Source of the DNA: an uncultured Clostridium sp.
Lineage (GTDB): Bacteria > Bacillota > Clostridia > TANB77 > CAG-508
Length of the DNA: 64,000 nt
NCBI GenBank assembly: GCA_958413095.1
Contig: CATYUF010000002.1
Span: forward strand, 5,439 to 69,438
Reading direction: 5' to 3'
How positions within the stretch are numbered: the first letter of the stretch is position 1; each line of letters begins with the position of its first letter. Below the pieces are notes generated by a model. That model was not told the origin of the DNA, did not search any database, and was given only the letters and a program-made list of their open reading frames with translations. Below are positions 26,074-60,332 of this stretch, piece after piece. A program made the translations under genes and the position numbers.

Positions 26074-26146
26074 TGGTATCCCTTCCTTTCTCCTTAAATT
26101 CATTATATAATTTAAAATTTTTATCTTCCATTGATTTATATAACAA

Positions 26147-26168: not shown

Positions 26169-26241
26169 TCTTCTGTGTATCATAAAATTTTTTCTTTATT
26201 TTAAGTTCTTTTCAAATATTATAAAACTTATCTTTGTAATT

Positions 26242-27255: not shown

Positions 27256-27914
27256 ACTAGTATATAACCTTGTCCTCTCCTAGTTTCAATTACATTTTTT
27301 AGTTCTACTTCTTCTAATTTACTTCTTAATCTTGAGATATTAACTGTTAAAGTGTTATCGTCTACAAACTCGTCTGATTCCCATAGATAACTTATAATTT
27401 CTTCTCTCGATACTATTTTTCCTTGATTTTTTAATAAATATTCTAACATTAAGAGCTCATTTTTTGAAAGTATAATCACTTTATCTTTACATATGATTTG
27501 GCTTCTTGCTCTGTCTATTTTTATATTTTTGTATTCAAGTTTTTGTGCCTCATTTTGTGTTCTTTTTAATATGGCTTCTATTCTTAATAATAATATTGTT
27601 GGATTATATGGTTTTGTAATATAGTCATCTGCTCCAGAACTCATACTTATTACTTCATCTGTGTCTGTATTTCTACTAGTTACCATGATTACTGGTATAT
27701 TTGATTTTTTTCTAATTTCTTTTAATAGCAATTGTCCATTGTTATTTGGTAAATTTATGTCTAATAAAATTAAGTTTGCATTTTGCTTTAATATATTTTT
27801 TGTTATTTCTTGAAAATCTTCTAATATTATTGTTTGGTATCCTGCATTTTCTAATAATTCTTTTAGCTCTTGGGCTAGTAGTTTGTCATCTTCTATGATT
27901 AATATTTTTGGCAT
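27252..27914 (-). CDS. OmpR/BceR-family response regulator, module 1
   Basis: 220 aa. Receiver domain (ILIIEDD...LLDINLP...) plus a winged-helix C-terminus (...TLTVNISRLRSKLE.....IETRRGQGY). Confidence 0.92.
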   Translation of the reverse strand: MPKILIIEDDKLLAQELKELLENAGYQTIILEDFQEITKNILKQNANLILLDINLPNNNGQLLLKEIRKKSNIPVIMVTSRNTDTDEVISMSSGADDYITKPYNPTILLLRIEAILKRTQNEAQKLEYKNIKIDRARSQIICKDKVIILSKNELLMLEYLLKNQGKIVSREEIISYLWESDEFVDDNTLTVNISRLRSKLEEVELKNVIETRRGQGYILV

Positions 27915-39615: not shown

Positions 39616-40372
39616 CGCCTAGTTCACCTCCTAATAGAGTTTGAACTTCTATTATTTTCTCAAAGAATTGTTTTCTTGTATCTTCTCCTTTTACCAATTC
39701 ATTAAAGATTTTTCCATCTTTTATAAATAATATTCTATTTGCATAGCTAGCAGTAAACGAATCATGTGTTACCATTAATATAGTTGCATTAAAATCATTA
39801 TTTAAAGCTTCTAAATTTTCTAGTAATTGTCTTGCTGACTTTGAATCTAATGCCCCAGTTGGCTCATCTGCTAATATCAAGTTTGGATTTGTTATTATAG
39901 CTCTTGCTGATGCAACTCTTTGTTTTTGTCCTCCTGAAATTTGATATGGGTATTTATTTAATATATCTGTTATTCCAAGTTGATTAGCAACTTTTTCAAC
40001 TCTTTTATCTATCTCCTTAGCATTTACTTTTTGTATAGTTAAGGCTAAAGCTATATTCTCACGAGCTGTTAGTGTATCTAAAAGGTTAAAATCTTGAAAT
40101 ATAAATCCCAATTCTTCTCTTCTAAATTTGTTTAGCTTATTTCCTTTTAGCTTTGTAATATCTTGATTGTTTATTACAATTTTTCCTGAAGTTACTCTAT
40201 CTATTGTAGAAATACAATTTAATAATGTGGTTTTACCTGAGCCAGATGCTCCCATTATTCCTATAAATTCTCCTTCATTTACTGTGAAACTAATATTATC
40301 TATGGCTTTTGTTAGATTAGATTTGTTTCCATAGTATTTTTCTATATTTTTTACTTCTAATATATTGTTCAT
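39605..40372 (-). CDS. BceA-type ABC ATP-binding protein, module 2
   Basis: Walker A GASGSGKTT, SGGQKQRVASARA, ILADEPTGALD. Confidence 0.93.
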   Translation of the reverse strand: MNNILEVKNIEKYYGNKSNLTKAIDNISFTVNEGEFIGIMGASGSGKTTLLNCISTIDRVTSGKIVINNQDITKLKGNKLNKFRREELGFIFQDFNLLDTLTARENIALALTIQKVNAKEIDKRVEKVANQLGITDILNKYPYQISGGQKQRVASARAIITNPNLILADEPTGALDSKSARQLLENLEALNNDFNATILMVTHDSFTASYANRILFIKDGKIFNELVKGEDTRKQFFEKIIEVQTLLGGELGDVI

Positions 40373-40453
40373 TGAAAAACAACTCCTTTCGCATATTTAA
40401 GATTATCTTAATTATACGAAAGGAGTTTGTTTTATGCAATTCTTTTTGCTTAC

Positions 40454-40481
40454 ATTTAGCTTACAGTTTTGTAAGCTAAAT
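40454..40481. promoter_or_regulatory. Candidate BceR-type regulator binding site (ATTTAGC-TTACA-gttt-TGTAA-GCTAAAT)
   Basis: Perfect 12-bp-arm palindrome centred about 95 nt upstream of the module-2 bceA-like ATG. It has the same TTACA-N4-TGTAA core as at 26147..26168 but different flanks. Confidence 0.55.
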
Positions 40482-40484
40482 GAC

Positions 40485-40556
40485 TTTTGTCTCCGACCCT
40501 AAAATCACTAAAATCATAATGATTTTGGGGTCGTGATTTTGGGGTCGGAGACAAAA
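40485..40556. repeat. G+C-rich nested inverted/direct repeat element between the module-2 kinase and ABC genes
   Basis: TTTTGTCTCCGACCC (40485-40499) is inverted relative to GGGGTCGGAGACAAAA (40541-40556). There is a tandem GATTTTGGGGTCG at 40521-40533 and 40535-40547, and a central AAATCATAATGATTT palindrome. Confidence 0.6.
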
Positions 40557-40557
40557 A

Positions 40558-41568
40558 TCATTTTATAAAACTACTTCTTGGAAAAATAATTTTTATTTCT
40601 GTTCCTAAATTAATTTCAGAATTTAGCTCTATCCCTAATCCTAATCTAGTACAAAGTACCTTGCATAAATACAGTCCTAATCCTGTTGATTTTTTTCCAT
40701 CTATTCTTCCATTTTCTCCTGTAAAGCCTTTTTCAAATACTCTTGTTATTTCTCCTTTTTTTATTCCTATTCCATTGTCTTTTATATGTAGTATAACTTT
40801 TTCTTTTTTATCTTCACTATATATCTCTATTTTTTTATTTTCTTTTTGACTATATTTTATTGAATTTTGTATTATTTGATTTAGAATAAATGTGCACCAT
40901 TTGTTATCTGTATAAACTTCTTTTTCTATATCATGTATTTCTAAATTAATTTTATTTTGTAATAAATTTCTTTTATTTTTTAAAATTGCTGTATTTACTA
41001 TTTCTTTTAAGCTAGTTTTTCTTATATAATAATCTTTTTCAACATTATTGCTTCTTGCATAATAAAGAGCTTGTTCAATATAGTTTTCTATTTTATCTAA
41101 TTCTTCATTTATACTTTTTGTTGCTTCTGATGGATTATTTTCTATTATTAATTTACTTGTTGCTATTGGTATTTTTATCTCATGAATCCATAATTCTATA
41201 TATTCTTTATAATCTTCTTGTAAATATTTATATTTATTCACATTTTCTAGCATTGACTTTCCAGCATCTTGAATTATATCTTTTGTTTTCTTGCCTTCTA
41301 CAAAATTTGGCATTTCCATTAGTTCAGATATTAAATATTTCTCATCTAATTCTTCTAATTTTTCATTAATTCTCTTGTAATATTTATTTTTAGTCCAATA
41401 CTCTATTATTAATGCTATTATAAATAAAATTATTGGAATTATTCCTATACAAACTCTCACATATAATGTTGTATTGACTGTTAATAAAAATGTTTGTACT
41501 GCAAATATACTTAGAATTAAAAATATTATATATATTACCTTATCTTTTATAAAATTTTTGAAACTCAT
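40558..41568 (-). CDS. BceS-type intramembrane-sensing histidine kinase, module 2
   Basis: 336 aa. Two N-terminal TM helices, H-box WIHEIKIPI, ...DNGIGI...GLGLY. Confidence 0.88.
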   Translation of the reverse strand: MSFKNFIKDKVIYIIFLILSIFAVQTFLLTVNTTLYVRVCIGIIPIILFIIALIIEYWTKNKYYKRINEKLEELDEKYLISELMEMPNFVEGKKTKDIIQDAGKSMLENVNKYKYLQEDYKEYIELWIHEIKIPIATSKLIIENNPSEATKSINEELDKIENYIEQALYYARSNNVEKDYYIRKTSLKEIVNTAILKNKRNLLQNKINLEIHDIEKEVYTDNKWCTFILNQIIQNSIKYSQKENKKIEIYSEDKKEKVILHIKDNGIGIKKGEITRVFEKGFTGENGRIDGKKSTGLGLYLCKVLCTRLGLGIELNSEINLGTEIKIIFPRSSFIK

Positions 41569-42236
41569 TTTAACATATACCCCTGTCCTCTTTTTGTTTC
41601 TATTCTATCTTGTAAACCTATTTCATCTAGTTTTGTTCTTAATCTTGTCATATTTACAGTTAGTGTATTATCATCTATAAAACTTTCACTATCCCATAAA
41701 TAATTTATTATTTCATCTCTTGAAACTATTTGGCCTTTTTTTAAAGCTAAATAGTGTAAAATTTTTAATTCATTTTTTGTCAACTCTTTTTGTTCATCAC
41801 CTCTTTCTATACAACTCTTTGATATATTTAAAATAAAATCATTACAATTTATCTTATTGGGGTTACCTTCATTATTTTGAGTTCTTTTCAAAAGACCTGC
41901 TATTTTTGCTAATAATATTTGAACATTATATGGTTTTACAACATATTGATCTGCACCATTATTTAAACTTATTAATTCATCAATTTCACTATTTCTACTT
42001 GTTACCATTATTATTGGCAAATTTGAAACTTTTCTAATTTCTTTGCATATATATTCTCCATCTGTATATGGTAAATTTATGTCTAGCAATATTAAATCTG
42101 CATTTTCTTTTAATATATCTTGTATTGCATTTTCAAATTCTTCTAATATTTTAACTTCATATCCATTCTTTTCTAAAAAAATTTTTAATTCTTTTCTTAG
42201 TTTTTCATCATCTTCTACTATTAATATTTTTGACAT
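41565..42236 (-). CDS. OmpR/BceR-family response regulator, module 2
   Basis: 223 aa. ILIVEDD...LLDINLP... plus ...TLTVNMTRLRTKLDE....IETKRGQGY. Confidence 0.92.
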   Translation of the reverse strand: MSKILIVEDDEKLRKELKIFLEKNGYEVKILEEFENAIQDILKENADLILLDINLPYTDGEYICKEIRKVSNLPIIMVTSRNSEIDELISLNNGADQYVVKPYNVQILLAKIAGLLKRTQNNEGNPNKINCNDFILNISKSCIERGDEQKELTKNELKILHYLALKKGQIVSRDEIINYLWDSESFIDDNTLTVNMTRLRTKLDEIGLQDRIETKRGQGYMLK

Positions 42237-47918: not shown

Positions 47919-48364
47919 CTAATCTATTTCCTTTTTGCATTTTTCTTCTATATTTTTAAAACCTAAATACCAACTTATTCCATTTCTATCTTCTCTCATT
48001 TGATTCGCTCTTTCCTGTAACTCACAATATGTTTTTGGCATTGGCATTATCACTGGTTGATTTGGAATCCAATTTGCAGCAGTCATTCCTTTACTACATT
48101 CTGATACTTGCAGTGCTTGTATTGTTCTTATTATTTCTGGTATAAATCTTCCTACATTCATTGGATATACAAATATTGTCCTTATTATTCCTCTATCATC
48201 TATTATATATACGTTTCTCACCGTTTCTGTATTACTAATATCATTTGATATCATTCCATATTTTCTTGCTATTTCTCCATTTCTATCTGCTATTATTGGA
48301 AATGATATTTGTATTCCTGTTTTGCAATATATATCATATACCCATGCTAGATGTGATGCATTAC
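47919..48364 (-). pseudogene. 3' portion (codons 81 to end) of a split 1-Cys (Prx6-type) peroxiredoxin gene
   Basis: The minus frame from 48362 reads NASHLAWVYDIYCKTGIQISFPIIADRNGEIARKYGMISNDISNTETVRNVYIIDDRGIIRTIFVYPMNVGRFIPEIIRTIQALQ... with no start codon or SD of its own. It continues the 60800..61084 fragment exactly. Confidence 0.88.
48342..48364. repeat. attL core CCATGCTAGATGTGATGCATTAC
   Basis: Direct repeat of 60824-60846 with a single T/A difference at core position 7. Confidence 0.8.
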
Positions 48365-48430
48365 CAAAGTTACCATTTTTTACACTCTAGGAAATCACAT
48401 TTCCTGAATGTGTTGTTTTGCTTATTCTAC

Positions 48431-50080
48431 TTAAGCACTTTCTATAAATTTCACATTATTTAATTGTTCTTTTATAATGTTTAATTCTGAAAAATTAAAG
48501 TATATATAGATATTTTTAAATTCATCTAATTCTATTTTGTTAATTAATTCAAATAATATTTTTCTGTTTAAATTTTCTTTTTTAAAACTTAAAAAGTTTT
48601 CTATGATTTTATCAATATTCTCTTTATTTTTATTTTTTCGTTTTTTCTCTTTAATTATGCAAATCTTTTCTTCAATACTTTTCTTTTGATTATTTAATTT
48701 TTCTCTTTCTTCTAAAAAAATTCTTGAATACCTAAAATAATCATCATTTGATATAATGCCATTCAAATTATCAAAATACATTTTATCTATTTTTTTTGTA
48801 ACATCTTCAATTTTTTTTATAACATTAGATAAATTCTGTTCTTCTTTTTTTATAATTAAATTGTAATTATCTTTACTTTTTTCATAAATTAATTTCAAAG
48901 CATTTTTATCATAATGTAAAAGGCAAATTTCTTTTATTTGATTAATCACTCTACTTTCAAATTTACTATAATTATAATTACAAGTCCTACATTTTTTATC
49001 TTTCCCCCTTGCTAAAGCACAATCTACATATCCTATTTTTTTCTTTTTACCTCTGTAGCAAATTCTTAACTGCCTTCCGCAATTATGACAAAATATTAGT
49101 CCTTTTAGTAATTCATCATGCTTTGGTGCTGACATACTTTTTCTACTTTTTAAAATTTCTTGTACTTTAGTAAATAATTTTTTTGATATAATCGCTTCAT
49201 GAGTATTTTCAACTCTTATGTATTCGCTTTCAACCTTTTGCTTTCTTTTCTTAACTTTATAAGATACAGATACACACTTATTTTGAACTGTATTTCCAAT
49301 ATAGGCTTCATTTATTAATATCGCTCTTATTGATTTAGGACTCCATGTTGTTCTTTGATGCTTTTGATTTAAATATTTACTAGGAGGATCTATTCCCTCT
49401 TTATCTAAAATGTTTGAAATTTTCTGAACTCCATTTCCTTCTGAATACAGTTCAAATATCTTTTCTATTACATAAGATACATTTTCATCTATTTCTAACT
49501 TATTCTTATGTGTTTTACTTTTTCTATAGCCATATGGTGCAACACTACCTAAGTATTCACCTTTTAACTCTTTTTCTCTTAGTACTCCTTTAATTTTTTT
49601 TGAAATATCTTTTGCATACATATCATTTATAATTGCTTTAAATGGTGTTACATCATTATTTGTACTGTCTATAAATGTGTCTATTCCATCAAGGATTGAA
49701 ACATATCTTACATTTTTTTCTGGAAAATAATTCTCAATATAATAACCTGTTTTTATGTAATCTCTCCCTAATCTTGATAAATCTTTAGTTATAACCATAT
49801 TTATTTTTTTATTTTCAATATCCTCAATCATCCTATTAAAATTTGGTCTATCAAAAGTTGTTCCAGAAATACCATCATCTTTGTATTCATCTATAAATAT
49901 AAGCCTATTTTCCTTTATATATCTTTGCAATATATCCCTTTGATTTGATATACTATCACTTTCTAGCTTGTCGCCATCTTCACGAGATAAACGAATATAA
50001 ATGCCTACTTTGAAAATTTTATTAAACTCTATTCCGATTGCTAAAAACCATTTTTTCACGCTCCCTTTTGTTCCTAGCAA
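48431..50080 (-). CDS. Large serine recombinase (resolvase/invertase N-domain, recombinase domain, zinc ribbon, coiled coil)
   Basis: 549 aa. Catalytic region VGIYIRLSREDGD...SISNQRDIL, ...GISGTTFDRP.F..M, ...KDLSRLGRD, a Cys4 ribbon (CHNCGRQL...C...C..C) and a Lys/Glu-rich coiled C-terminus. TTG/GTG start is uncertain. Confidence 0.92.
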   Translation of the reverse strand: MLGTKGSVKKWFLAIGIEFNKIFKVGIYIRLSREDGDKLESDSISNQRDILQRYIKENRLIFIDEYKDDGISGTTFDRPNFNRMIEDIENKKINMVITKDLSRLGRDYIKTGYYIENYFPEKNVRYVSILDGIDTFIDSTNNDVTPFKAIINDMYAKDISKKIKGVLREKELKGEYLGSVAPYGYRKSKTHKNKLEIDENVSYVIEKIFELYSEGNGVQKISNILDKEGIDPPSKYLNQKHQRTTWSPKSIRAILINEAYIGNTVQNKCVSVSYKVKKRKQKVESEYIRVENTHEAIISKKLFTKVQEILKSRKSMSAPKHDELLKGLIFCHNCGRQLRICYRGKKKKIGYVDCALARGKDKKCRTCNYNYSKFESRVINQIKEICLLHYDKNALKLIYEKSKDNYNLIIKKEEQNLSNVIKKIEDVTKKIDKMYFDNLNGIISNDDYFRYSRIFLEEREKLNNQKKSIEEKICIIKEKKRKNKNKENIDKIIENFLSFKKENLNRKILFELINKIELDEFKNIYIYFNFSELNIIKEQLNNVKFIESA

Positions 50081-50112
50081 TCACCTGCTTAGAAACTATT
50101 TTAAACTGTAAT

Positions 50113-50253
50113 CTAGTTTTTTTCAAGTTTTTTTTGGTCTTTTATTCGGTCTTTTAAATAAATTTCAAATGCCTTACCAATACTTTCATTTATTTCACCT
50201 TTTGTAGAATCAAATATACAAAATATCTTGCCTTCTTCCTCTTGTTCTTTCAT
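50113..50253 (-). CDS. 46-aa hypothetical protein immediately upstream of the recombinase gene
   Basis: Not in the track. My translation is MKEQEEEGKIFCIFDSTKGEINESIGKAFEIYLKDRIKDQKKLEKN. The SD is weak. Confidence 0.3.
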   Translation of the reverse strand: MKEQEEEGKIFCIFDSTKGEINESIGKAFEIYLKDRIKDQKKLEKN

Positions 50254-50428
50254 GCCACACCTTCTTTAAAATATGCTTTTTCTAATATGTATGCTTAAAA
50301 TTTAATAAAAATTATATTGATTTTTTCACATAACAAAAATAAGTGAAAGAGTTTCTTACCCATTCACTTATTTGCTCATAAAATTTGATTTTGTCCTCCC
50401 TGTTTTTCAAAAATTTTTTCAATTCTAA

Positions 50429-50566
50429 TTAGTATCCATACTTCTCTTGCATTTTTTTGAAAACATTCCTTGCATCATGTACTTTTCCTTCTTTATATTC
50501 TTTTTTGCTCTTTTCAAGTTTATTTGAAAAGTTTTCAAAATCTTTAATATTCATTTCTCTTTGCAT
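50429..50566 (-). CDS. 45-aa hypothetical protein (C-terminus reminiscent of small antitoxin/RHH-type proteins)
   Basis: Not in the track. My translation is MQREMNIKDFENFSNKLEKSKKEYKEGKVHDARNVFKKMQEKYGY. No convincing SD. Confidence 0.25.
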   Translation of the reverse strand: MQREMNIKDFENFSNKLEKSKKEYKEGKVHDARNVFKKMQEKYGY

Positions 50567-50830
50567 TTTTTCGCAACCTTTCTTCTATTTAATGTTTATT
50601 TTTATAATTTACTAAGTCTTAATCATTGTTTAAAAAATTCTGTTTTTTATATCTCTTTTTAATATGTTTGCATTTTTCTCCGAAAAACATCCCTTAATTC
50701 TTGCTAAATTTATTAATGACATTGCATTACTGTAATAATTTTTTGATTCTACTACTACTAATTCAAATAGCACATAATATGAAATTGTAAAATCATAATT
50801 ATTTGATATCTCACAATAAAAATAAAAGGT

Positions 50831-50863
50831 AAACGGAGAACATTAATAAAATGTTCTCCGTTT
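50831..50863 (-). terminator. Intrinsic terminator after the Erm/KsgA-like gene
   Basis: AAACGGAGAACAT-taataaa-ATGTTCTCCGTTT, a perfect 13-bp stem followed on the minus strand by a T-rich tract. Confidence 0.7.
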
Positions 50864-50903
50864 TAGGTAATTACTCAATTACCTTTAATTAGTTTGCATT
50901 CTG

Positions 50904-52022
50904 TCATCCCAAGATTTCCATCAACTCTTCTTTCGAAGCGAACTCTAATCCTCGATGAAGTAAAGCATTATATCTTCTGTCATCATACAGATAAGCATAT
51001 TTTTCTGATGCCTTTTTCTGTGTCTTAGTTACAACAACTTCCTCTTCCTCTTCAAAGTTATCCAAATCATATCTACCTGTTCTCAGATAACTCTCATAAG
51101 GATCTTCCTCAAAGTGTTTTCTTGAAGCCTTAGCACCTTTAATTTTCGAATCATTCCTGATTAAATCCTGTAATAGCTGAGAAATCTGTGCATTGTTTAA
51201 GTCATAAATGCTACTGTCTCCAATTCTCTTCGAAGTAAAGCTTCCACTGAAATTCTGATTAGAAGAATTTTTGTGTTTGTTCAAGTTATAAATTCTTCCT
51301 TGAACCAACATCATCTGATATACTCTACTAATTGTAGGAGTCTTCCGATTTCTGTCCATCAAAATTTCTTCCATTATTCTATCAACAGTTGTTTTTTTCT
51401 TCTTCGGTGTAAGATTTACCAAAAAAGATGTAACTGCTGGTTCAGGATAAAATGCTTTGCTCGGAATTACCTGATCAATATCAACATTAAGATATGTTTG
51501 ACAAATTGCTGAAATTAATCCAAATTCCTGATTCAAGTGTTTACTATTTCCTTCGGAAACCTGTATTGGTGCCACCATTTTTCTAGTAGAGTTCTGAGAT
51601 AACACCAATGTGATACTCTTTACTCTTGAACTCTTTTTGTCCTTGTTGTTCACGTAAAGTGCCCCAGACTGTGCAAGATTTACCAAGAAAGGTTCTGTTA
51701 TAGTATATGGAAGATTTGCAACAATTCTATCATAATCAACATATGACATATCAAGTGCATTACCTTCAACAACCGTAACATTATCATAATTCTTGAATTT
51801 CTTTTTCAGTAAATCTGCATAATAATGGTCAAGCTCAATAACTGTCAGTGGATTTCCTAGCCTAGCTAAAACTTCGGTTAGTGCTCCTGCTCCACCACCA
51901 ACTTCTACAACAGACTCTCCTTTTTGTATATTAGCCTTCCGACAAATATGTTCAATGAGTTGCTTGTCGACCATAAAATGTTGGTCTTTTGTTGGATTAG
52001 GATTCTTTTCAAATTCAGTCAT
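50904..52022 (-). CDS. Erm/KsgA-family rRNA adenine N6-methyltransferase-like protein with a ~170-aa C-terminal extension
   Basis: 372 aa. QHFM (compare QNFL), SAM motif VVEVGGGAGALT, IELD, and catalytic ANLPY (compare N(L/I)PY). The C-terminal half is charged and low in complexity. G+C is visibly higher than in neighbouring genes. Confidence 0.8.
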   Translation of the reverse strand: MTEFEKNPNPTKDQHFMVDKQLIEHICRKANIQKGESVVEVGGGAGALTEVLARLGNPLTVIELDHYYADLLKKKFKNYDNVTVVEGNALDMSYVDYDRIVANLPYTITEPFLVNLAQSGALYVNNKDKKSSRVKSITLVLSQNSTRKMVAPIQVSEGNSKHLNQEFGLISAICQTYLNVDIDQVIPSKAFYPEPAVTSFLVNLTPKKKKTTVDRIMEEILMDRNRKTPTISRVYQMMLVQGRIYNLNKHKNSSNQNFSGSFTSKRIGDSSIYDLNNAQISQLLQDLIRNDSKIKGAKASRKHFEEDPYESYLRTGRYDLDNFEEEEEVVVTKTQKKASEKYAYLYDDRRYNALLHRGLEFASKEELMEILG

Positions 52023-52129
52023 AGTAATACCTCCTAAATGTTATAAAAATATATTGACTGCAAACTTAAAAATACAAAACGTTTCCGTTTACATAACAAT
52101 TATACGCTAATTTGCTTTTTTTGTCAAAT

Positions 52130-53087
52130 TTAATTATCGTCTAACATTTTTATTATATTTTTATATATAAACATTGGTATTATCTTTAATATTTGAAATA
52201 TTATAAAACTATTTATTATACCAATTTTATCTGCACACAAACCTATCAATAAACTTATAATTGCAAAAATAATATTTTTAAATAATGATTTTATTGAACC
52301 CATACTTGCTCTATGTTTTTCATCATATAATTGTTGTTCTATTTCCATTTGTATAACTTCCGTTGTAAGTAATGAATTAGAAACCATTATTATTGGTGAA
52401 ATTATTGATTTTAATATAACACCAATTATATTAGATAACATACTATATATATTTACAATATAATATAATCTTTCTTTTCCAGTATTTTCGACTAATTTTC
52501 CATTATTCCAATTTGCAATAGTTGCTCCTATATTTGATAAAATTCCTGGTATTCCCAAAGCCCATTTGGGATAGAAAGTACTTCTAAATTGAAAACATGC
52601 TTCTCCTATTCCCTCATTTATACCATCAGCTATAATTTGTCTTTTTAAAACTTTATTTGTCATAATAAGCTTTAATGATTGTTTTGCTTGTTCTTTTACA
52701 TTTTCCTGTCTTTTTATATTTTTTATTTCTTTTAATTTAAATGAAGCGATTATTAATAATATTTTTGGGATAAATGACAACAATATAATTATTTTATATG
52801 ATGTAAAAAAAGCTATAATGCAACCAATTAGTGCAGATACTGCTCCAGCTAAGTATTTCATGGAGTTTATTTTTCCTGCATAATTGTTATATTCAATTTC
52901 TTTTGAGTCTTCTTTAAGAAGCTCATAAATATATAATACATGATATTAATGTTGCTATACTAAATATACTCATTCCTAACATCATAGAATTAGTAACTTC
53001 AATGTAAAATAGAATAGCTATAACTCCATATAGTTTAAATTCACTAAAAAAATTTAGCCAATATACTATCTTATATTTTCTTTCCAT
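52130..53087 (-). pseudogene. Frameshifted, degenerate MFS-like membrane transporter gene
   Basis: The ATG at 53087 gives MERKYKIVYWLNFFSEFKLYGVIAILFYIEVTNSMMLGMSIFSIATLISCIIYL*. Another frame continues ...YELLKEDSKEIEYNNYAGKINSMKYLAGAVSALIG... (tracked ORF 52130..52861). The total length is short for an MFS protein and the usual loop 2-3 motif is missing. Confidence 0.5.
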
Positions 53088-53091
53088 ATTA

Positions 53092-53670
53092 TTACCTATT
53101 TATTGCAGAAAAAAACTCTTGACGCAAATTGCTATCATTTTTAAATTTTCCTCTCATTGTATATGTATCAGTTACAACTCCTGGCTTTTTTATTCCTCTT
53201 GCAGTCATACAGGAATGTTCTCCCTCAATATATACAGCAACATCATCAGTATTACATGCTTTTGCAATTACCTCCGCAATGTCTGTGCCAATTTTTTCTT
53301 GTAATTGTAATCTTTTTGTTATCATATCTACAATTCTAGCAATTTTAGATAATCCTAAAACTCTTCCATTAGGTAAATATGCAACTGTTATTTTCATATT
53401 ATACATAAGAGCTAAATGATGTTCACAATAACTAAAAGCAGGGATATCTTTCATTATAACAATATTATCTCCACCTTGTTCAAAAGTTTTATTAAACATA
53501 TTTGCAATCTCATCATTGGAATATTGTATTCCTTCAAATACCTCTTCATACATTTTAGCTACTCTTTTAGGAGTTTCCTTTAATCCCTCTCGTTCTGGAT
53601 TTTCTCCAATGGCTTCTAGTATATCATATATAGCTTTTTCAATTTTTTTTCTATCAAAAGTCTTACTCAT
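53092..53670 (-). CDS. folE: GTP cyclohydrolase I
   Basis: 192 aa. Contains ...[21 protein letters not shown]..., ...FSYCEHHL and ...EGEHSCM..RG. Confidence 0.93.
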
Positions 53671-53700
53671 TTTTACCTCCTAGTTGATATAGTATATATT

Positions 53701-54351
53701 TTATACTCCCCTCATATCAGGATTCCAAATAACTTTATGCAACTGAATTTGCATACGTACTTTTGTCATATCTATACCATTTGAATTACATTTTTTCATA
53801 AATTCAACAATTTTTGGTAATTTAATTTTTTGATATATTGGACTAATATATACAAAACTTTTTATTTTAAATTTTCTTAGTACTTCTTCAACTGTTTTTA
53901 AATCGCTTTCTTCCACAACAAATTTCAAAACATCCTCTTCGCCTAATTTTTCTATATTTGCTAAATTCATTGTATTTTCCATATTACTTGAAGGACATTT
54001 GTAATCCATAGTAATTAAACATTTTCCAACATACTTTTCAATGTTGATACTTCCATTTGTTTCGATATTAACTTTATAATTTGATTTAAGTAATTCTTCT
54101 ATCAATATATCAATATCTTTATGTTGTAAAGGTTCTCCACCTGTTAGTGTAACATTTTTTATTCCAATTTTATCTAATTCATCAATAATTTCATTTACTG
54201 ACATTTCTGTTCCTGCATTTTTATCTAACGCATATTGTGTATCGCAATATGAACATCTTAAATTACATCCAGCTAACCTTACAAAACTTGCTAATTCTCC
54301 TGCTCTAATACCTTCTCCATCAATACTTCCAAATATTTCATTTACGACCAT
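53701..54351 (-). CDS. queE: 7-carboxy-7-deazaguanine synthase (radical SAM)
   Basis: 216 aa. EIFGSIDGEG..AG....FVRLAGCNLRCSYCDT.Y and ...VTLTGGEPL. Its start overlaps the queD stop (TAATG). Confidence 0.9.
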   Translation of the reverse strand: MVVNEIFGSIDGEGIRAGELASFVRLAGCNLRCSYCDTQYALDKNAGTEMSVNEIIDELDKIGIKNVTLTGGEPLQHKDIDILIEELLKSNYKVNIETNGSINIEKYVGKCLITMDYKCPSSNMENTMNLANIEKLGEEDVLKFVVEESDLKTVEEVLRKFKIKSFVYISPIYQKIKLPKIVEFMKKCNSNGIDMTKVRMQIQLHKVIWNPDMRGV

Positions 54352-54686
54352 TATTCCACCTCATAAACAGCTATATTATCTTTACTTTCTTGAACACTTA
54401 CTTTATAGCATTTTTCACCTAACTCATCTGCAATCCATTTTGCAATATTTTCTGCTGTTGTATTAAATGGAAGTATATCATTTAAATTTTGATGATCTAA
54501 TTTATTTTTAATCTTTTGTTTAATATGTGTAAAGTCCATTACCATTCCATCTTGATTTAACTCTCTACTTTTCATATATATCTGAATAATCCAATTATGT
54601 CCATGTAGATTTTCGCACTTGCTTTCATAAGATAATTTTAATTGATGACTTGCACTTATTTCTATTGTTTTTTTCACGTAATACAT
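54351..54686 (-). CDS. queD: 6-carboxy-5,6,7,8-tetrahydropterin synthase
   Basis: 111 aa from the ATG at 54686 (SD aggagg). Motifs SASHQL....KCENLHGHNW, ....GMVMDF..IK and ..LDHQNLND. The longer tracked ORF (to 54821) runs through a terminator hairpin. Confidence 0.9.
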   Translation of the reverse strand: MYYVKKTIEISASHQLKLSYESKCENLHGHNWIIQIYMKSRELNQDGMVMDFTHIKQKIKNKLDHQNLNDILPFNTTAENIAKWIADELGEKCYKVSVQESKDNIAVYEVE

Positions 54687-54774
54687 TTTAATACCTCCTA
54701 AAACACTTGTATTTATTGGAATTTTATCACTTTTTTTGAAATGAGTAAAGTATAAAGCACAGTTTTTTATAGAA

Positions 54775-54819
54775 AAAGCAGAAAAATGGAAGCATTTGAT
54801 TTTAAAATTAAATGCTTCC
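54775..54819 (-). terminator. Hairpin plus T-tract between the carbamoyltransferase gene and queD
   Basis: GGAAGCATTT (54788-54797) pairs with AAATGCTTCC (54810-54819), followed on the minus strand by atttttctgcttttt. Confidence 0.55.
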
Positions 54820-54826
54820 ATTTTTA

Positions 54827-56470
54827 TTAATGCAATTTTACAATGTAACTACCAATTGCTAAAAAGTCTAAGTTCATCTTTCTAGCACTATCCAATGCCT
54901 TAAATGGAGTATCAACAATCGGTTCCCCTTTGATATTAAATGAAGTATTAATTACTACAGGAATTCCTGTTATGTTATAAAATTCATTTATAATATCATA
55001 AAATAAAGCATTGTATTTTTTAGTAACTGACTGAATTCTAGCTGTACCATCAATATGAGTAACAGCTTCAAGATTTTTTTGTTCTTTTTTTAGCACATTG
55101 CAGTTAATAGTCATATATGGCGAAAACTGCTCTGAACTAAAATAATTTGTCTGTTTTTCAAACAAAACAGCCGGTGCTAATGGCCTCCAAACTTCCCTAC
55201 CTTTGAGAGTATTAAGTTTAACCAACATATCTTTTTTTCTTGGATCTGCCAGTAAACTACGATTTCCAAGTGCTCTTGGACCATACTCTAATCTCCCTTG
55301 AAAGTTTGCAACAATACAGCCATCTGAGATTAACTTTGCAGCATCATGTGCTAAATCATTTGATTCGTAAAATTCACAATTTTCACGAATTAATATCTCT
55401 TTTACTTCTTCATCTGAGAACGAATTGCCCTGATATGGAATCATCTCAAAACAAACTTCTTCATTCAAAGCAATCGCTCCTGCTATTGCTGAACCAAGAG
55501 AGATTCCTCCATCATTTGCTGCTGGTTGAGTAAAGATATTAGCTACCTCTTTCAACTCTGATAAAATTCCATTAGCAGCACAATTTAGTCCGACTCCACC
55601 TGCTATCGCCACATTGTCCAAACTGTATTTGCGACAATTATACACAACAATCTGAGATAATATTTCTTCAAGCAGTTTTTGAGCTGACGAAGCTAAATTA
55701 GCATATGGAATAATATCATCTGTTACGTCTTCAATCTTTCCCGTTCTCGGAGCAATAATTGTACTCAGAATCTGTTTCCATTTTGCAATAGTTTCTTCTT
55801 CCTCATCCTTACTCTTTTTTTCAACAGTAAAAGAACAACTTAACTTACCTTCTCTATTCACATTAATGTACTTTTTCAGTTCATTAATATAAACTGGTTC
55901 TCCATAAGAAGCAAGTCCCATTGTTTTTCCCTCTTGTCCTGAGAAAAAACCGATATGTTCGGTGACTGCCGCATAAAAATAGCCAAGAGAAATAGGAGTT
56001 TCATAAATCTTATCCATTCTCTTTTGTTTTCTATCACCAACAAATACCGAAGTAGCAATATCCTCTCCTTGTCCATCAATAACAATTGTCAAAGCTTTTT
56101 CAAAGTTAGAAGGATAAAACGCACTATATGCATGTGCTTTATGGTGCTCTAGATACATAAGTTTATCTGCGTATTTACCTGTTCCAAATAAAGCCATAGA
56201 CATTTCTTCATTAGAGATAAATTTTTCTCCAAACATCTGCCACAATTCTGGATAATTCCATCCAATAACAACCTTATCAATGTCATCGATTGAAATCTTT
56301 TCATGTTGACAAATCATGTCAATTGATTTCTTTGGAATCATATCATATGCATGTCTCAGTCCAACTAACCGCTCTTCTTCAATAGCAAATTTTAATTTGC
56401 CATCAACTAACAATGCTGCTCCACCATCATGTCCTCTAACAGTCCATCCGTTAAGTCCTAAAATTTTCAT
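54827..56470 (-). CDS. NodU/CmcH-family carbamoyltransferase
   Basis: 547 aa. MKILGLNG....HDGGAALL.DG, LEHHKAHAYSAF, GPRALGNRSLLADPR, HIDGTARIQSV and VINTSFN, giving the Kae1-like plus YrdC-like architecture. G+C is visibly higher than in neighbouring genes. Confidence 0.9.
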   Translation of the reverse strand: MKILGLNGWTVRGHDGGAALLVDGKLKFAIEEERLVGLRHAYDMIPKKSIDMICQHEKISIDDIDKVVIGWNYPELWQMFGEKFISNEEMSMALFGTGKYADKLMYLEHHKAHAYSAFYPSNFEKALTIVIDGQGEDIATSVFVGDRKQKRMDKIYETPISLGYFYAAVTEHIGFFSGQEGKTMGLASYGEPVYINELKKYINVNREGKLSCSFTVEKKSKDEEEETIAKWKQILSTIIAPRTGKIEDVTDDIIPYANLASSAQKLLEEILSQIVVYNCRKYSLDNVAIAGGVGLNCAANGILSELKEVANIFTQPAANDGGISLGSAIAGAIALNEEVCFEMIPYQGNSFSDEEVKEILIRENCEFYESNDLAHDAAKLISDGCIVANFQGRLEYGPRALGNRSLLADPRKKDMLVKLNTLKGREVWRPLAPAVLFEKQTNYFSSEQFSPYMTINCNVLKKEQKNLEAVTHIDGTARIQSVTKKYNALFYDIINEFYNITGIPVVINTSFNIKGEPIVDTPFKALDSARKMNLDFLAIGSYIVKLH

Positions 56471-56631
56471 AGTAAGCCTCCTTATTGAACTTATGTTACA
56501 TTGTTTTCAATGTGCATTTTTTTATTATAATTATAATTATAACTATAATTGATAATAAAAATATGCCTTATTATATCATCACAAACTTATTATGTCAATT
56601 GTTTGATAAAAGAATATAATGCAAATATTCC

Positions 56632-57957
56632 TTAACTCACATTATATTCTTTTATTATATTCTTAAACTTTGTTCCTAATAAAATTAGAGCTATCAAATT
56701 TGGAATTATTATAAAACCTACTGATATATCTGCTAATGCCCATATAGCATCTATTGGCAATAGTACTGCAAATATAACAGGAATATAATATATCCATTTT
56801 AGATATTTAAATTTATTTTCTCCAAATAAATATGTAATACTTGTTTTAAATTCAATAAAATATCCCAAATATGAAGTATAAGCAAATAATGCTATAATTA
56901 TACTCAAAATTACTTTTCCATAGTTTCCATATATCGTTTGAAAAGCATCTAAAACAAGTACTGCTCCTGAATTTCCCGTTGATATACTTCCTGTTACCAT
57001 AATTAATAAAGCCGTTAATGTACATGTTACAAAGCTAACAACTGCAACTTCAAATATTCCCCACATACCTTGCTCAACCGGTTTAGCATTCTTTTGAGTT
57101 GCATACACCGTTGCAGAAGTTCCTAAACCTGCTTCATTTGCAAAAATTCCTCTTGCTGCACCCTTACTAATAGCCATCATAATTGTCGCACCTGCAAAAC
57201 CGCCCATTACTGGTGCTGGTTGAAAAGCATATTTTATAATATCTATTAACACATTTGGAATTTTAGTTATATTAATAATTACAATTAGTATCGCAGATAT
57301 TAAATAAATTAATGTCATTACAGGAACTATTCTTTTTAAAAATATCCCCATTTTATCTAATCCTTTATTAATAATTATTATTGAAATTCCTATTGCAATA
57401 ATTCCTATTAAAATTAATGGTACTTTAAATGTTTCATTTATAGTTGTTGCTAACGTATTCATCTGTGCAAAACATGAATCAGTAATTACATATGTCAATA
57501 ATGATACACTATAAACAACTGCTAGTATTTTCCCTAATTTTCCTGATACTTGTTTTATATAATACATTGGTCCGCCACTGTATGTTCCATCTTCTTTCTT
57601 TTTTCTATATTTAACGGATAATGTAACTTCTGCCATTTTTGTAGCCATACTAATAAAGGAGATAATCCACATCCAAAAGATTGCTCCTGGTCCTCCTACA
57701 GCTATTGCTGATGCTATACCTGCAATATTTCCTGTTCCTATTGTACCAGCTAAAACCATACTTATTGTTTTTTTATCATCATCTGTTTTATTTTTATTAT
57801 CTATTAATTTTCCTACTGTTGACCTAAATATATGTTTTATTTTTGTTAATTGAAAGAATTTACAGCATACACACATATATATTCCAACACATACAACAAA
57901 TATAGTTAAAGGTAATCCCCATAAAAAATCTGTTATTTCTGTAATCATATCTAACAT
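56632..57957 (-). CDS. Alanine/glycine:cation (sodium:alanine) symporter family protein (AGCS)
   Basis: 441 aa and polytopic. Motifs ...LAGTIGTGNIAGIASAI..GGPGAIFWMW and ...GIFANEAGLG. Confidence 0.85.
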   Translation of the reverse strand: MLDMITEITDFLWGLPLTIFVVCVGIYMCVCCKFFQLTKIKHIFRSTVGKLIDNKNKTDDDKKTISMVLAGTIGTGNIAGIASAIAVGGPGAIFWMWIISFISMATKMAEVTLSVKYRKKKEDGTYSGGPMYYIKQVSGKLGKILAVVYSVSLLTYVITDSCFAQMNTLATTINETFKVPLILIGIIAIGISIIIINKGLDKMGIFLKRIVPVMTLIYLISAILIVIINITKIPNVLIDIIKYAFQPAPVMGGFAGATIMMAISKGAARGIFANEAGLGTSATVYATQKNAKPVEQGMWGIFEVAVVSFVTCTLTALLIMVTGSISTGNSGAVLVLDAFQTIYGNYGKVILSIIIALFAYTSYLGYFIEFKTSITYLFGENKFKYLKWIYYIPVIFAVLLPIDAIWALADISVGFIIIPNLIALILLGTKFKNIIKEYNVS

Positions 57958-57971
57958 GTTATCTTCTCCAT

Positions 57972-58724
57972 TTATTTCACTATTTTTATACCAAATAATT
58001 TTCTCTCTAATAATATTCCCCTATCAGTAGCATATTGGTTAACATATTTATTAAACTTACTAAAATCTTCTCTTTCTTTTCCAAAATTAGGAATAATTGG
58101 TGTGTTATTTAATAAAAATAATAAATCTTCTTCTGTCTCATAGTATTCTTGTTGTAAAATATCATAAAATTCGACTTTTTCAAATTTAACACCTTTTAAT
58201 TCTTTTTTTATTTTATCAATCAGTTTTGTTTTTGAATTAAATCCCTGTCCTCTTCCAAAAATTTTCTTTAACTCTAAACAGTCATCTTCGTCTATTTGTT
58301 CTGAAAAGAAATATCCATTTTTTCTTAATACTCTATTAACTTCCTTTACATCAAACGGAGTATGCCTTGCAGAAATAATATCAAAAAATTCATCTGGAAA
58401 GTTAATATTTTCTGAATCCATTTCAAAAAATCTAATATTATTTTTATTATTTTGTTTATTTGCACTTTTAACCATCTCTATTGAAAAATCTGTACCTATT
58501 TTCAATAAGCATTTGTCTGAGATTAAATTACTTAATTTTTCTCCTCCACCTGTACCTATATCTAACAATATAGTATTTGTTTTAACTTTACTATTTATTT
58601 CATCAAAAAATTGAAACTCACTATTATCAACCATTTGATATTTCATTTTTGAAAAATCCCAACCAATGGTCTTTCCAACTTTATTATAGAATTCTTTTTC
58701 TTCTTCACTATTATAATTTATCAT
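57972..58724 (-). CDS. Class I SAM-dependent methyltransferase
   Basis: 250 aa. Motif I ILLDIGTGGGEKL and a post-I acidic residue (GTDFS). Confidence 0.8.
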   Translation of the reverse strand: MINYNSEEEKEFYNKVGKTIGWDFSKMKYQMVDNSEFQFFDEINSKVKTNTILLDIGTGGGEKLSNLISDKCLLKIGTDFSIEMVKSANKQNNKNNIRFFEMDSENINFPDEFFDIISARHTPFDVKEVNRVLRKNGYFFSEQIDEDDCLELKKIFGRGQGFNSKTKLIDKIKKELKGVKFEKVEFYDILQQEYYETEEDLLFLLNNTPIIPNFGKEREDFSKFNKYVNQYATDRGILLERKLFGIKIVK

Positions 58725-58826
58725 TTTGCTACCTCCTGCTAAGATATTATCATAAATATACTATTTTTTCAATAAATTATAAGAAATAATAAGGAAAGAG
58801 TATTCAACTCCTTCCTTATTATGTAT

Positions 58827-59615
58827 TCAAATTGGCTTGTGAATAAAGTAACCTAAACAATATACTACATTCCAGAATATATAGTAAATTCCAGATATAC
58901 AATTTTTCTTGAAAATTGGTATTATTAAATTCCAGTTTGCTGTCGGTCTCTTTTTATGCAATTTTTTATCTGCTGCCTTTTTCACCCCATATCCATACCT
59001 ATATGCAGATTTCAAATCTTGTTTAAAAGTGAGGTTATCATGGATACATGTTGTACTCTTAATTTCACCAACTTTTATATCTGCTTTTCTCGCTCTAATA
59101 TTCAATTCAGAATCTTCTATCCATTGAATATCATTATCAAAAAAATAATTGCAAACCATCGGTTTTAACTTTTTATTAATTCCTATGGCTGGACACAAAG
59201 CATAACCTGGTATTCCCATTTCTCTGGTATAGCTAATAACTTTGCTTGAATGTGTATCTTGTTTAAAGAATACTTTTCCATCTACCAGCAAGTATTGTTC
59301 TAGCATATGATAGAATTCAAGTAATGCTCCTTTTACTATCAAGCAATCACTATCATAAAACACAACCTTTTCATACTTTGCTCTCTCAATACCATAATTT
59401 CTTGCTTTGCTCAAATTTCTTTCTGGTAATTCAATTACATTGACATTTAAAGATGATTTCTTTTTAAAGTCTTGTACTATATTTCTTACTTTTTCTGTTG
59501 CACCATTTAAAACAACAATAACTTCACAATTGATGTCAATGGTTTCTAGCATATTTCTTATCCGTAGGTCATCTGCTACACATACAACCAAAGATAAATC
59601 AATTTCATTCTTCAT
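58827..59615 (-). CDS. Glycosyltransferase family 2 (GT-A fold)
   Basis: 262 aa. N-terminal LSLVVCVADD..., ...ARNYGIE.A... and a DxD-type FYDSDC. Confidence 0.8.
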   Translation of the reverse strand: MKNEIDLSLVVCVADDLRIRNMLETIDINCEVIVVLNGATEKVRNIVQDFKKKSSLNVNVIELPERNLSKARNYGIERAKYEKVVFYDSDCLIVKGALLEFYHMLEQYLLVDGKVFFKQDTHSSKVISYTREMGIPGYALCPAIGINKKLKPMVCNYFFDNDIQWIEDSELNIRARKADIKVGEIKSTTCIHDNLTFKQDLKSAYRYGYGVKKAADKKLHKKRPTANWNLIIPIFKKNCISGIYYIFWNVVYCLGYFIHKPI

Positions 59616-59690
59616 AATTTACCTCCTTTTGAATACAGACAAGGATTTAGACTATCTGTCTAAATCCTTGTCTGTAGTGTTTTCAGAAAC

Positions 59691-60332
59691 TTACTCAGCT
59701 GGATCTGTTAATCCCAAGCTTTCGAAAGATTCTTTTCGATTTCTGCAAGGCTGACAAATTCCACATGGCTTCTCTCCATTTGACACACAAGTCCATGTAT
59801 GTTCAAGAGGAACTTTGTACTCCAAAGCTGTCTTGATAATTTCCTGTTTGTTCTTATAATTCAATGGTGCTTCAATAATTACATTTGGATTGTTTTTTAC
59901 TGCAATCTGAATTAACTGATTCATCATTTTAATAAACTCAGGAGAATTATCTGGGCAAATCCATGGACCTGCTTCGCTACCAATAAAAATCCTTTCAAAT
60001 TCTTCATCAGTTTCTGCCCATGCAATTGCTGCTGTCAAAATACAAGCATTTCTGAACGGAACATAAATCAAATCATCTTCTTCACTTGCTTTAATTCCAG
60101 TATCAGTAATCATTGATATTCCAAGTTTTCCTAACCATGTCATATCAATAATTTTGTGTTCTTTTGCACTATAATGCTGTGCAAAAAACTTCGTGTTTGA
60201 AATTTCCCGCTCAATGTTTTTCTGACCATAGTTAACTGTCAGGAAATACAGTTCGTACCCCCGTGCCTTTGCTATAGCAGCACAAGTTGTACTATCAATT
60301 CCACCGCTGATTGTAATAATTGCTTTTTTCAT
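59691..60332 (-). CDS. queC: 7-cyano-7-deazaguanine (preQ0) synthase
   Basis: 213 aa. PP-loop AIITISGGIDSTT, ...YVPFRNA and a C-terminal Zn motif C....KPCGICQPC..R. G+C is visibly higher than in neighbouring genes. Confidence 0.92.
   Translation of the reverse strand: MKKAIITISGGIDSTTCAAIAKARGYELYFLTVNYGQKNIEREISNTKFFAQHYSAKEHKIIDMTWLGKLGISMITDTGIKASEEDDLIYVPFRNACILTAAIAWAETDEEFERIFIGSEAGPWICPDNSPEFIKMMNQLIQIAVKNNPNVIIEAPLNYKNKQEIIKTALEYKVPLEHTWTCVSNGEKPCGICQPCRNRKESFESLGLTDPAE

Follow-up and report, generated by a model that had tools for sequence, protein, structure and literature searches.

We analysed a 64,000-nucleotide stretch of DNA from an uncultured Clostridium sp. (GenBank assembly GCA_958413095.1, contig CATYUF010000002.1), referred to here as the window. 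A genomic island of ~12.5 kb within it carries a QueC-family gene, a GT2 glycosyltransferase, a TobZ-like carbamoyltransferase and a KsgA/Dim1-like methyltransferase. We estimate a probability of about 0.6 that these genes belong to a mobile cluster which makes a glycosylated, carbamoylated 7-deazaguanine compound and protects its producer with a ribosomal RNA (rRNA) methyltransferase, a reading built on sequence comparison. A preliminary description of the same DNA had already argued for a natural product. This is supported by the co-conservation of the GT2 and the carbamoyltransferase, by tailoring and export genes in related loci, and by the absence of a TGT/DpdA enzyme, a riboswitch or a phage copy.

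Proteins of the window were matched to Pfam and NCBIfam, the latter with curated equivalog cut-offs. All genes named in the preliminary description were found in one orientation, on the minus strand, at or near where it had placed them. They comprise the QueC-family gene (59691-60332; PF06508, 171 bits), the GT2 (58827-59615; PF00535 as its sole Pfam domain), a class I S-adenosylmethionine (SAM) methyltransferase recognized by Pfam (57972-58724) and an AGCS (Na+:alanine/glycine) transporter (56632-57957; TIGR00835, 379 bits against a cut-off of 273). The 547-amino-acid carbamoyltransferase (54827-56470) belongs to the NodU/CmcH/TobZ family, with both domains above the Pfam cut-offs (Carbam_trans_N 138.3 against 24, Carbam_trans_C 207.5 against 27). 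It is followed by QueD, a 6-carboxytetrahydropterin synthase (54351-54686; TIGR03367, 92.3 against 89.25), QueE, a 7-carboxy-7-deazaguanine (CDG) synthase of the Clostridial type (53701-54351; TIGR03963, 263.7 against 260.1), and FolE, a GTP cyclohydrolase I (53092-53670; TIGR00063, 203.6 against 181.6). The presence of queD was thus borne out, with its start corrected from 54821 to 54686, behind a ribosome-binding site; the resulting protein has 111 amino acids, as it does on related contigs. The last gene of the series encodes the KsgA/Dim1-like adenine-N6 methyltransferase of 372 amino acids, which we term RrnaAD-long (50904-52022; PF00398, E 2e-31).

Related loci compared with the window are identified by L-numbers. 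Around 50 distinct ones were recovered in two independent searches, one starting at the carbamoyltransferase and the other at the methyltransferase. Their hosts are uncultured gut and rumen Firmicutes, and the core of the family consists of the QueC-family gene, a private GT2, the TobZ-like carbamoyltransferase and a KsgA/Dim1-like methyltransferase of 370-405 amino acids. The carbamoyltransferase-side survey, which took one genome per GTDB species, found this enzyme at 42% identity or more in 13 loci only, hosted by uncultured gut or rumen Clostridia, Bacilli or Erysipelotrichaceae. The next matches in this survey, at 37% identity or less, had no que genes nearby, whereas the subfamily at 42% or above occurs only beside QueC and GT2. 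QueC, GT2 and carbamoyltransferase stand together in 14 of the 14 loci analysed (window included), and a RrnaAD protein of 370-405 amino acids is encoded in 12 of these, the remaining two contigs ending too early. FolE, QueD and QueE are present in 8 of the 14 loci and a Vut_1/YhhQ-family transporter in the other 6, as exact complements; across the whole family the YhhQ-type transporter stands in for the three enzymes in about a third of loci, and both are never found together. Because the de novo genes and Vut_1 are mutually exclusive, the 7-deazaguanine precursor appears to be the point of the cluster. Additionally, gene order is shuffled among loci, which argues for a functional association beyond inherited synteny.

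The survey from the methyltransferase side (gene contexts plus 33 metagenome loci) showed that RrnaAD-long always adjoins deazaguanine genes given enough flank, and no orphan copy was seen in loci with enough flank. The preliminary description had placed the Erm/KsgA-like gene last, as a continuation of the series. It is no trailing add-on: given enough flank, no other gene shows so tight a linkage to the deazaguanine set. A second type of cluster (L087, L099-101, L119) has RrnaAD-long and deazaguanine genes without the GT2 and the carbamoyltransferase, and carries in their place a Nucleotid_trans-type transferase, a DegT sugar aminotransferase, a HAD phosphatase and a methyltransferase. In this second type, and on the conjugative element L088, RrnaAD-long is joined by a short KsgA/Erm-like gene (TIGR00755 137-159 bits, below the cut-off of 171) and by a TlyA-family 2'-O-methyltransferase (218 bits, above the cut-off of 185.8).

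The preliminary description hinged on glycosyl-, methyl- and carbamoyltransferase genes being co-conserved with the que genes. This holds for the GT2 and the carbamoyltransferase, while the window-type SAM methyltransferase is shared with the closest relatives only. The AGCS gene, which had been counted as part of the set, is an accessory that tracks the de novo genes, occurring in ~14 of 17 non-redundant de novo loci and in ~2 of 9 Vut_1 loci. Full-text searches found no published description of a cluster combining QueC/preQ0 genes with a carbamoyltransferase and a glycosyltransferase, in agreement with the earlier view that the combination is new; it is not unique to this island, as it belongs to a widespread family with cousins in cultured Bacillus (discussed below).

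The QueC-family protein scores 142.8 on the NCBI equivalog TIGR00364, under the cut-off of 150.3. Compared with solved structures, it is almost as distant from two canonical QueCs (65 and 58 bits) as it is from the protein ligase Cap9 (47 bits). Canonical QueC is defined by YxQxHxxE, VPxRN, YPDC and a zinc motif with Tyr189, and in the E. coli enzyme Y35, R99, Y131 (where Phe is partly tolerated) and Y189 are essential for queuosine (Q) synthesis (PMC13082051). All 31 of the 31 distinct cluster QueCs keep Tyr35 and Arg99, carry Cys or Thr in place of Tyr131 and Val, Ile or His in place of Tyr189, and have Asn in place of Cys134, inside the motif GPWICPDNSPEF. Among the 150 nearest representatives at 50% identity (from 1.84 billion proteins), ~125 have an aromatic residue at position 131 together with Tyr189, and [C/T]PDN without Tyr189 occurs in only ~15, all top matches. 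Because this combination is confined to the top matches, it marks a discrete QueC subfamily. The YxQ(x)5E spacing, the C(x)7C spacing of the zinc motif and the change of His39 to Asn were considered as Cap9-like signs and set aside, since they are common in canonical-looking QueCs among the 150 representatives. As judged from these alignments, [C/T]PDN and the loss of Tyr189 are the sole diagnostic marks of the subfamily. The window QueC and Cap9 also share the motif AG.P...D(C/N)SPxF.

QueC is kept in loci without FolE, QueD and QueE, where a housekeeping QueC would be redundant. Precedents for QueC-family enzymes acting as CDG-amide ligases are RoyL, Cap9 and QatC. The missing Tyr131 and Tyr189, the retention without de novo genes and these precedents together suggest that the window QueC makes something other than simply preQ0 (7-cyano-7-deazaguanine), a nitrile synthase with compensating changes being the other possibility. 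A complete preQ0 pathway had been ascribed to the island. FolE, QueD and QueE do lie above their equivalog cut-offs; with QueC below its own and without Tyr131 and Tyr189, the complete pathway is an interpretation and not an observation. FolE, QueD and QueE are also not a fixed part of the cluster, being dispensable at the loci where the Vut_1/YhhQ transporter takes their place.

Measured against a canonical queuosine/preQ0 operon, the island has FolE, QueD and QueE but lacks the QueC signature, the downstream queF, tgt and queA genes and, across 47-64 kb of the window, the preQ1 riboswitch. Indeed, neither this riboswitch nor any other Rfam family was found in that interval at E<=1, and the preQ1 riboswitch was likewise absent from 7 related loci. 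No gene for TGT/DpdA, QueF or queA is present in the island, which confirms the earlier statement on queF, tgt and dpdA. No TGT domain was found in the island or the ~50 related loci, and none of the 10 size-matched open reading frames (ORFs) tested elsewhere in the window, a sample and not a scan of the whole, encodes TGT or QueA.

The GT2 family is private to these clusters: nearly all of its 116 matches are at least 52% identical, after which identity drops to 45%, 39% and 37%. The protein has the DxD (D88/D90) and ED (E167/D168) motifs and a hydrophobic C-terminal helix. With its predicted model (pLDDT 92), Foldseek matched many GT2 enzymes at similar score, AvpGT among them. AvpGT is a nucleoside-specific GT2, the tubercidin 3'-O-glucosyltransferase (PMC11959488), and the likeness, which comes from a predicted model, is a lead and not an assignment. 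The carbamoyltransferase aligns with TobZ from end to end (residues 1-544, E 6e-79).

From these assignments we propose the following pathway. FolE, QueD and QueE would convert GTP to CDG, as expected from their family membership above cut-offs and the established pathway. The variant QueC would activate the CDG carboxylate with ATP and, given the loss of Tyr131 and Tyr189, its product may be a carboxamide or an N-substituted amide at C7 rather than the preQ0 nitrile. The private GT2 would then transfer a hexose or N-acetylhexosamine from a UDP-sugar, and the TobZ-like enzyme, to judge by its full-length homology, would form carbamoyl-AMP and carbamoylate a sugar hydroxyl. In this lineage the SAM methyltransferase would add a methyl group. 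RrnaAD-long, with its own promoter and terminator, would most likely methylate an rRNA adenine and so protect the producer ribosome. The unit as a whole appears to be passed between gut Firmicutes by serine-recombinase islands and by conjugative elements.

The role of RrnaAD-long is where this reading meets its strongest competitor. The protein scores 139.6 on TIGR00755 (cut-off 171) and 104.5 on the Erm model NF000499 (cut-off 212). It is therefore neither a housekeeping KsgA/RsmA, which typically has 250-290 amino acids compared with 372 here, nor an Erm 23S rRNA (A2058) methyltransferase; ErmC' ranks 50th in Foldseek. The top 49 Foldseek matches of its AlphaFold2 model (pLDDT 82) are all KsgA/Dim1/TFB1M proteins, aligned over both domains and ~285 columns. 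ExGGGxG, NLPY and FxPxPxVxS are invariant in the family, which also has a short insertion after motif IV and a C-terminal extension of ~60-80 amino acids ending with the conserved KYxYLYDxxRYxxLLxRGLE. RrnaAD-long is probably a self-resistance rRNA methyltransferase. The retained RNA-binding domain, the position at cluster edges by exporters and other rRNA methyltransferases, the separate promoter and the mobile DNA all favour ribosome protection.

It is also conceivable, though we think it unlikely, that the metabolite pathway is the same but that the KsgA-like protein takes part in tailoring, as an N-methyltransferase for one of the exocyclic amines of the deazaguanine scaffold (e.g. N2), with protection left to export alone. 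Enzymes of the N(L/I)PY type methylate exocyclic amines, and RrnaAD-long stays one-to-one with the deazaguanine genes even where the sugar-tailoring set differs, as in the second cluster type (L087, L099). The lack of any orphan copy points the same way, as does its divergence, which is like that of the biosynthetic enzymes (53-57% identity compared with 56-61%). However, RrnaAD-long keeps the C-terminal RNA-binding domain of KsgA in full, along with the FxPxPxVxS motif of the adenine pocket. It also lies at cluster edges by MFS, second KsgA/Erm-like and TlyA-family genes, the latter two being RNA enzymes, and has its own consensus promoter. Additionally, the cousin clusters in Bacillus and L136 do without RrnaAD-long and have ABC exporters instead.

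Several observations weigh against a self-protected, glycosylated product. The absence of orphan RrnaAD-long genes fits an essential pathway enzyme equally well, and methylation by KsgA and TlyA classically raises, not lowers, sensitivity to kasugamycin and capreomycin. The structural neighbours of the GT2 are generic and name no acceptor. AGCS is an importer-type transporter, unusual for a biosynthetic cluster, and is decayed or split in L001, L018 and L085; in L085 QueD is also truncated and QueE lost. Lastly, the MFS exporter of the window island itself is dead.

A different proposal, which we regard as improbable, is that the cluster modifies RNA (the ribosome) or protein: the QueC-family ligase would join carboxy-deazaguanine to a macromolecule, which the KsgA- and TlyA-like enzymes, the GT2 and the Kae1/YrdC-related carbamoyltransferase would modify further. 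Protein-modifying QueC-family ligases are established, Cap9 and QatC acting on protein N-termini (PMC13082051; bioRxiv 10.1101/2025.04.06.647259). The sequence motif shared with Cap9, the RNA-modification ancestry of several partners and the position of the L004 set amid defence-like genes can be read in the same sense. On the other hand, TGT-like, CD-NTase and QatA/B/D partners are absent, PADLOC finds no system, and no small substrate protein is conserved. The dedicated precursor supply, by de novo genes or by a transporter, argues for a stoichiometric output; exporters, carrier-protein and adenylation genes and the many variable tailoring genes are likewise at odds with macromolecule modification, and the methyltransferase motifs are all of the ordinary SAM/adenine type. 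Finally, it is most improbable that the island only supplies or boosts queuosine precursor for the tRNA of its host, with the other genes, including an erm-like resistance gene, as unrelated passengers. FolE, QueD and QueE are canonical and gut bacteria often salvage Q precursors, but GT2, carbamoyltransferase and RrnaAD-long are strictly co-conserved with QueC across ~50 loci in shuffled order, and many loci without FolE/QueD/QueE keep a QueC. Residues on which preQ0 synthesis depends are missing from this QueC, the island has neither queF nor tgt nor a preQ1 riboswitch, and RrnaAD-long falls under the Erm and KsgA equivalog cut-offs.

The claim that these genes are mobile cargo is borne out by a serine recombinase, 23-bp repeats and a split peroxiredoxin gene. 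The left direct repeat (CCATGCTAGATGTGATGCATTAC; 48342-48364) forms the island edge within the peroxiredoxin frame, at the 'NASHLAW' codons, and the right one lies at the other edge (60824-60846); the two copies match at 22 of 23 bases. Near one end, a translated ORF on the minus strand (48431-50080) encodes a large serine recombinase of 549 amino acids, the presumed integrase. An identical recombinase gene in L090 has the domains Resolvase/Recombinase/Zn_ribbon_recom, and homologous recombinases adjoin the cluster in L016, L018, L085 and L137. The interrupted peroxiredoxin is represented by an N-terminal fragment (60800-61084, minus strand; AhpC-TSA/Redoxin) and a C-terminal part (47919-48366), so the host would lack this peroxiredoxin unless a second copy lies elsewhere. 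Identical island copies occupy the same site in several metagenome samples. An island-free peroxiredoxin site was not found: every exact-match contig has the island, hence there is no evidence of excision. Two small ORFs of ~45 amino acids lie in 50081-50903, between the KsgA-like gene and the serine recombinase. In the identical island L090 they are annotated as genes (45 and 46 amino acids); they have no family match and may be excisionase- or regulator-like island genes. No regulator gene was identified in the island.

Perfect sigma-70 promoters, at 12 of 12 consensus positions, occur in the island only twice, both on the minus strand: TTGACA-17-TATAAT 5' of RrnaAD-long (52099-52127), and a second one with an extended -10 TG 5' of the carbamoyltransferase (56570-56598). 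RrnaAD-long is followed by a terminator-like hairpin with a 14-bp stem and a T-rich tail (50831-50863, minus strand). At the carbamoyltransferase stop, an intrinsic-terminator hairpin (54778-54833, minus strand; stem AAAATGGAAGCATTT/AAATGCTTCCATTTT, then a T-run) divides two transcription units. An Rfam match to 'mir-302' on both strands was rejected as spurious, being the palindrome of this terminator. A further palindrome with a 19-bp stem lies in the gap between queC and the GT2 (59634-59676). The MFS-like gene, a decayed exporter (52136-53084, minus strand), is a pseudogene as the preliminary description had it: compared with the intact 393-amino-acid homologue of L018, residues 3-52 and 114-386 align in different frames and 53-113 are deleted. 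The gene is intact in L018, L085 and L093-96.

Other relatives show how these clusters vary. In L085/L096 (7679-8139) queE and most of queD are gone and AGCS is split, with the MFS and KsgA-like genes intact, a pattern that fits selection on export and immunity once biosynthesis decays. The 78%-identical relative L001 (7150-7608, 16773-17123) has an IS200-type Y1 transposase between GT2 and methyltransferase, and decayed AGCS and MFS genes; its cluster is followed directly downstream by a gene for bacterial RNase P RNA. L088/L089 (1-9878) has the cluster on a conjugative element with TraG/VirD4-like, TrbL, PrgI and ArdC genes, and its carbamoyltransferase is fused to a methyltransferase (846 amino acids). 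In L004/L009 (900-7717, 20689-21644) a Vut_1-type cluster stands amid defence-island-like genes (an AAA_11/AAA_12 helicase with DUF2726, DUF2130, NUDIX and NERD/HRDC).

The variable extras at other loci include a DcsG-like ATP-grasp enzyme (fused to the carbamoyltransferase in L013), a FemAB/GNAT-like protein, double methyltransferases, a GT2-radical-SAM fusion, radical-SAM-SPASM and B12-radical-SAM enzymes and an S66 (MccF-like) peptidase. Also found were an SbnA/SbnB-like PALP+OCD pair, SHMT homologues, a DegT aminotransferase, an AMP-binding enzyme with a carrier protein (PP-binding) and ABC/MFS exporters. From their family assignments, these neighbours suggest biosynthetic clusters that are diversifying and that also provide for export and immunity. 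The SHMT homologues belong to distant cluster versions (L017 11649-15420, L136 11628-12959, L137 11452-12714), and L017 also has the SbnA/SbnB-like pair; SHMT-like transaldolases are a hallmark of high-carbon peptidyl nucleoside antibiotics. In viral contigs RrnaAD-long had no relatives and the carbamoyltransferase matches were all generic (37% identity or less); no RrnaAD-long was found on sequenced plasmids.

The window has ~25% G+C and, carrying YtvI, NuoF-like and aldolase genes, is chromosomal DNA of a spore-forming Clostridia-like organism. Outside the island, positions 21886-27914 and 37522-42236 appear to hold two similar modules, in each of which a large ORF of permease type is accompanied by an ABC ATPase, a SapS-like histidine kinase and a response regulator, in the manner of Bce-type modules for peptide-antibiotic sensing and detoxification; the family scan there covered the kinases (26242-27255, 40558-41568) and a PmtA-like ATPase (21886-22743).

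The nearest GT2 relatives outside the private family also lie within deazaguanine clusters. On 16 Bacillus cereus-group plasmids the gene order is a BpsA-like gene, the carbamoyltransferase (36%), a stand-alone DUF5591 protein, the GT2 (35%), a methyltransferase, a PIG-L deacetylase, an ABC-2 exporter and then canonical queC/queD/queE/folE. Cultured B. cereus, B. toyonensis and B. mycoides all have plasmids with this uncharacterised cluster (L135, NZ_PP277075.1 34347-45278). In archaeosine synthase, an enzyme that acts on the preQ0 nitrile, DUF5591 forms the catalytic core (bioRxiv 10.1101/2023.04.13.536721), and the L135-type cluster may make an archaeosine-like amidine metabolite. Of the other cousins, the contig L136 is plasmid-like (Rep3/ParA) and bears adenylation and carrier genes, and the recombinase island L137 has two RrnaAD genes and an SHMT. 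These cousins indicate that deazaguanine genes with a GT2 and a carbamoyltransferase form a broader module, in which the means of N-derivatising the C7 substituent appear to differ between lineages.

More tentatively, the family could represent an unseen class of ribosome-directed 7-deazaguanine glycoside antibiotics on the mobile DNA of gut anaerobes, in which the QueC subfamily would ligate or amidate CDG in place of preQ0 synthesis and the KsgA-, Erm- and TlyA-like immunity genes would be resistance determinants, already circulating in the gut, to an antibiotic yet to be isolated. Known 7-deazapurine natural products are almost entirely from actinomycetes, and this family would place such chemistry on mobile elements of uncultured gut and rumen Firmicutes. 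It would also explain what a discrete QueC subfamily does that departs from the newly defined catalytic signature, and define a new, tightly linked branch of the KsgA/Erm superfamily, possibly a mobile ribosome-protection determinant. Through the Bacillus cereus-group cousins, this chemistry could be approached in culturable bacteria. If the product does target the ribosome, both a new antibiotic scaffold and its resistance mechanism would be directly testable.

Compared with known systems, the island resembles the Dpd and phage DNA-modification systems in having a folE/queD/queE/queC cassette on mobile DNA, but it has no DpdA or TGT-like enzyme beside the que genes and no viral relatives. It is also distinct from type IV CBASS (Cap9/Cap10) and QatABCD. 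PADLOC reports only generic QueC and methyltransferase similarity (QatC at 13 bits) and no partner genes; Cap9 and QatC act on proteins and need a CD-NTase/Cap10 or QatABD, which are absent here. What the window shares with Cap9, QatC and the RoyL enzyme of roseomycin A, a peptidyl-7-deazapurine, is a divergent QueC-family enzyme, probably kept in the window for a role other than preQ0 synthesis. RoyL, Cap9 and QatC form CDG-amides, and ATP-grasp and amino-acid-handling genes are present in loci related to the window. RoyL, which was compared by description and not by sequence, reportedly keeps Cys139 of YPDC, where the window subfamily has [C/T]PDN; its reported amine-pocket residues are Tyr41, His45 and Glu48.

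The preliminary description had pointed to huimycin. With the huimycin cluster (Kutzneria albida; MIBiG BGC0002354) and the dapiramicin type, the island shares FolE/QueD/QueE/QueC, one glycosyltransferase and one SAM methyltransferase, and the lack of TGT/DpdA; this common logic of que genes with a glycosyltransferase and a methyltransferase stands. The glycosyltransferases, however, differ: HuiG is a GT4/GT-B enzyme with PF13439 (bioRxiv 10.64898/2026.04.15.718813), which rules out homology to the window GT2. HuiB is a canonical QueC, 72% identical to ToyM, whereas the window QueC is non-canonical. The huimycin cluster also belongs to an actinomycete and encodes HuiA, a regulator of the pathway that is of LuxR type in the huimycin family, neither of which applies to the island; it has no rRNA methyltransferase, AGCS or Vut_1 and is not on a recombinase island. 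With a GT2 in place of a PF13439 GT4 and no LuxR-type regulator, the island therefore falls outside the huimycin family. A carbamoyltransferase gene, KALB_4074, lies directly 3' of huiG and was not needed for huimycin in a heterologous host (PMC7439116); the native Kutzneria albida product might be carbamoylated huimycin.

Clusters for 7-deazapurines without TGT/DpdA have precedent, and the survey that defined them, covering ~2 million genomes, placed ~70% of 933 putative clusters in Streptomyces (bioRxiv 10.64898/2026.04.15.718813). It is silent on carbamoyltransferases, Clostridia, rRNA methyltransferases and this gene combination. The island conforms to the regional part of its rule for 7-deazapurine secondary metabolism, having the full CDG/preQ0 set with tailoring and transporter genes and no dpdA in the region; the second half, no tRNA-inserting TGT genome-wide, lies beyond the 64-kb window. 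RrnaAD-long shares the RrnaAD fold, both domains and all catalytic motifs with KsgA/RsmA/Dim1 and Erm, and its location in an antibiotic-like cluster by exporters parallels that of Erm in producers of macrolide-lincosamide-streptogramin (MLS) antibiotics; it differs in scoring under both equivalog cut-offs and in its motif IV insertion and C-terminal extension. TobZ, the nebramycin 5' 6''-O-carbamoyltransferase, is a sugar-hydroxyl carbamoyltransferase of an antibiotic pathway and has the same full-length YrdC-like plus Kae1-like architecture as the window enzyme. Identity is ~35% or less, and the window enzyme belongs to a tight subfamily (at least 42% identity) tied to QueC and GT2. Lastly, the cluster of the Bacillus plasmid pBc138-312k (NZ_PP277075.1) differs in its canonical QueC, ArcS-core (DUF5591), BpsA-like polyamine synthase, PIG-L deacetylase and ABC-2 exporter and in having no KsgA-like gene, while it shares with the island the carbamoyltransferase, the GT2, a SAM methyltransferase, queC/queD/queE/folE, an exporter and a location on mobile DNA.

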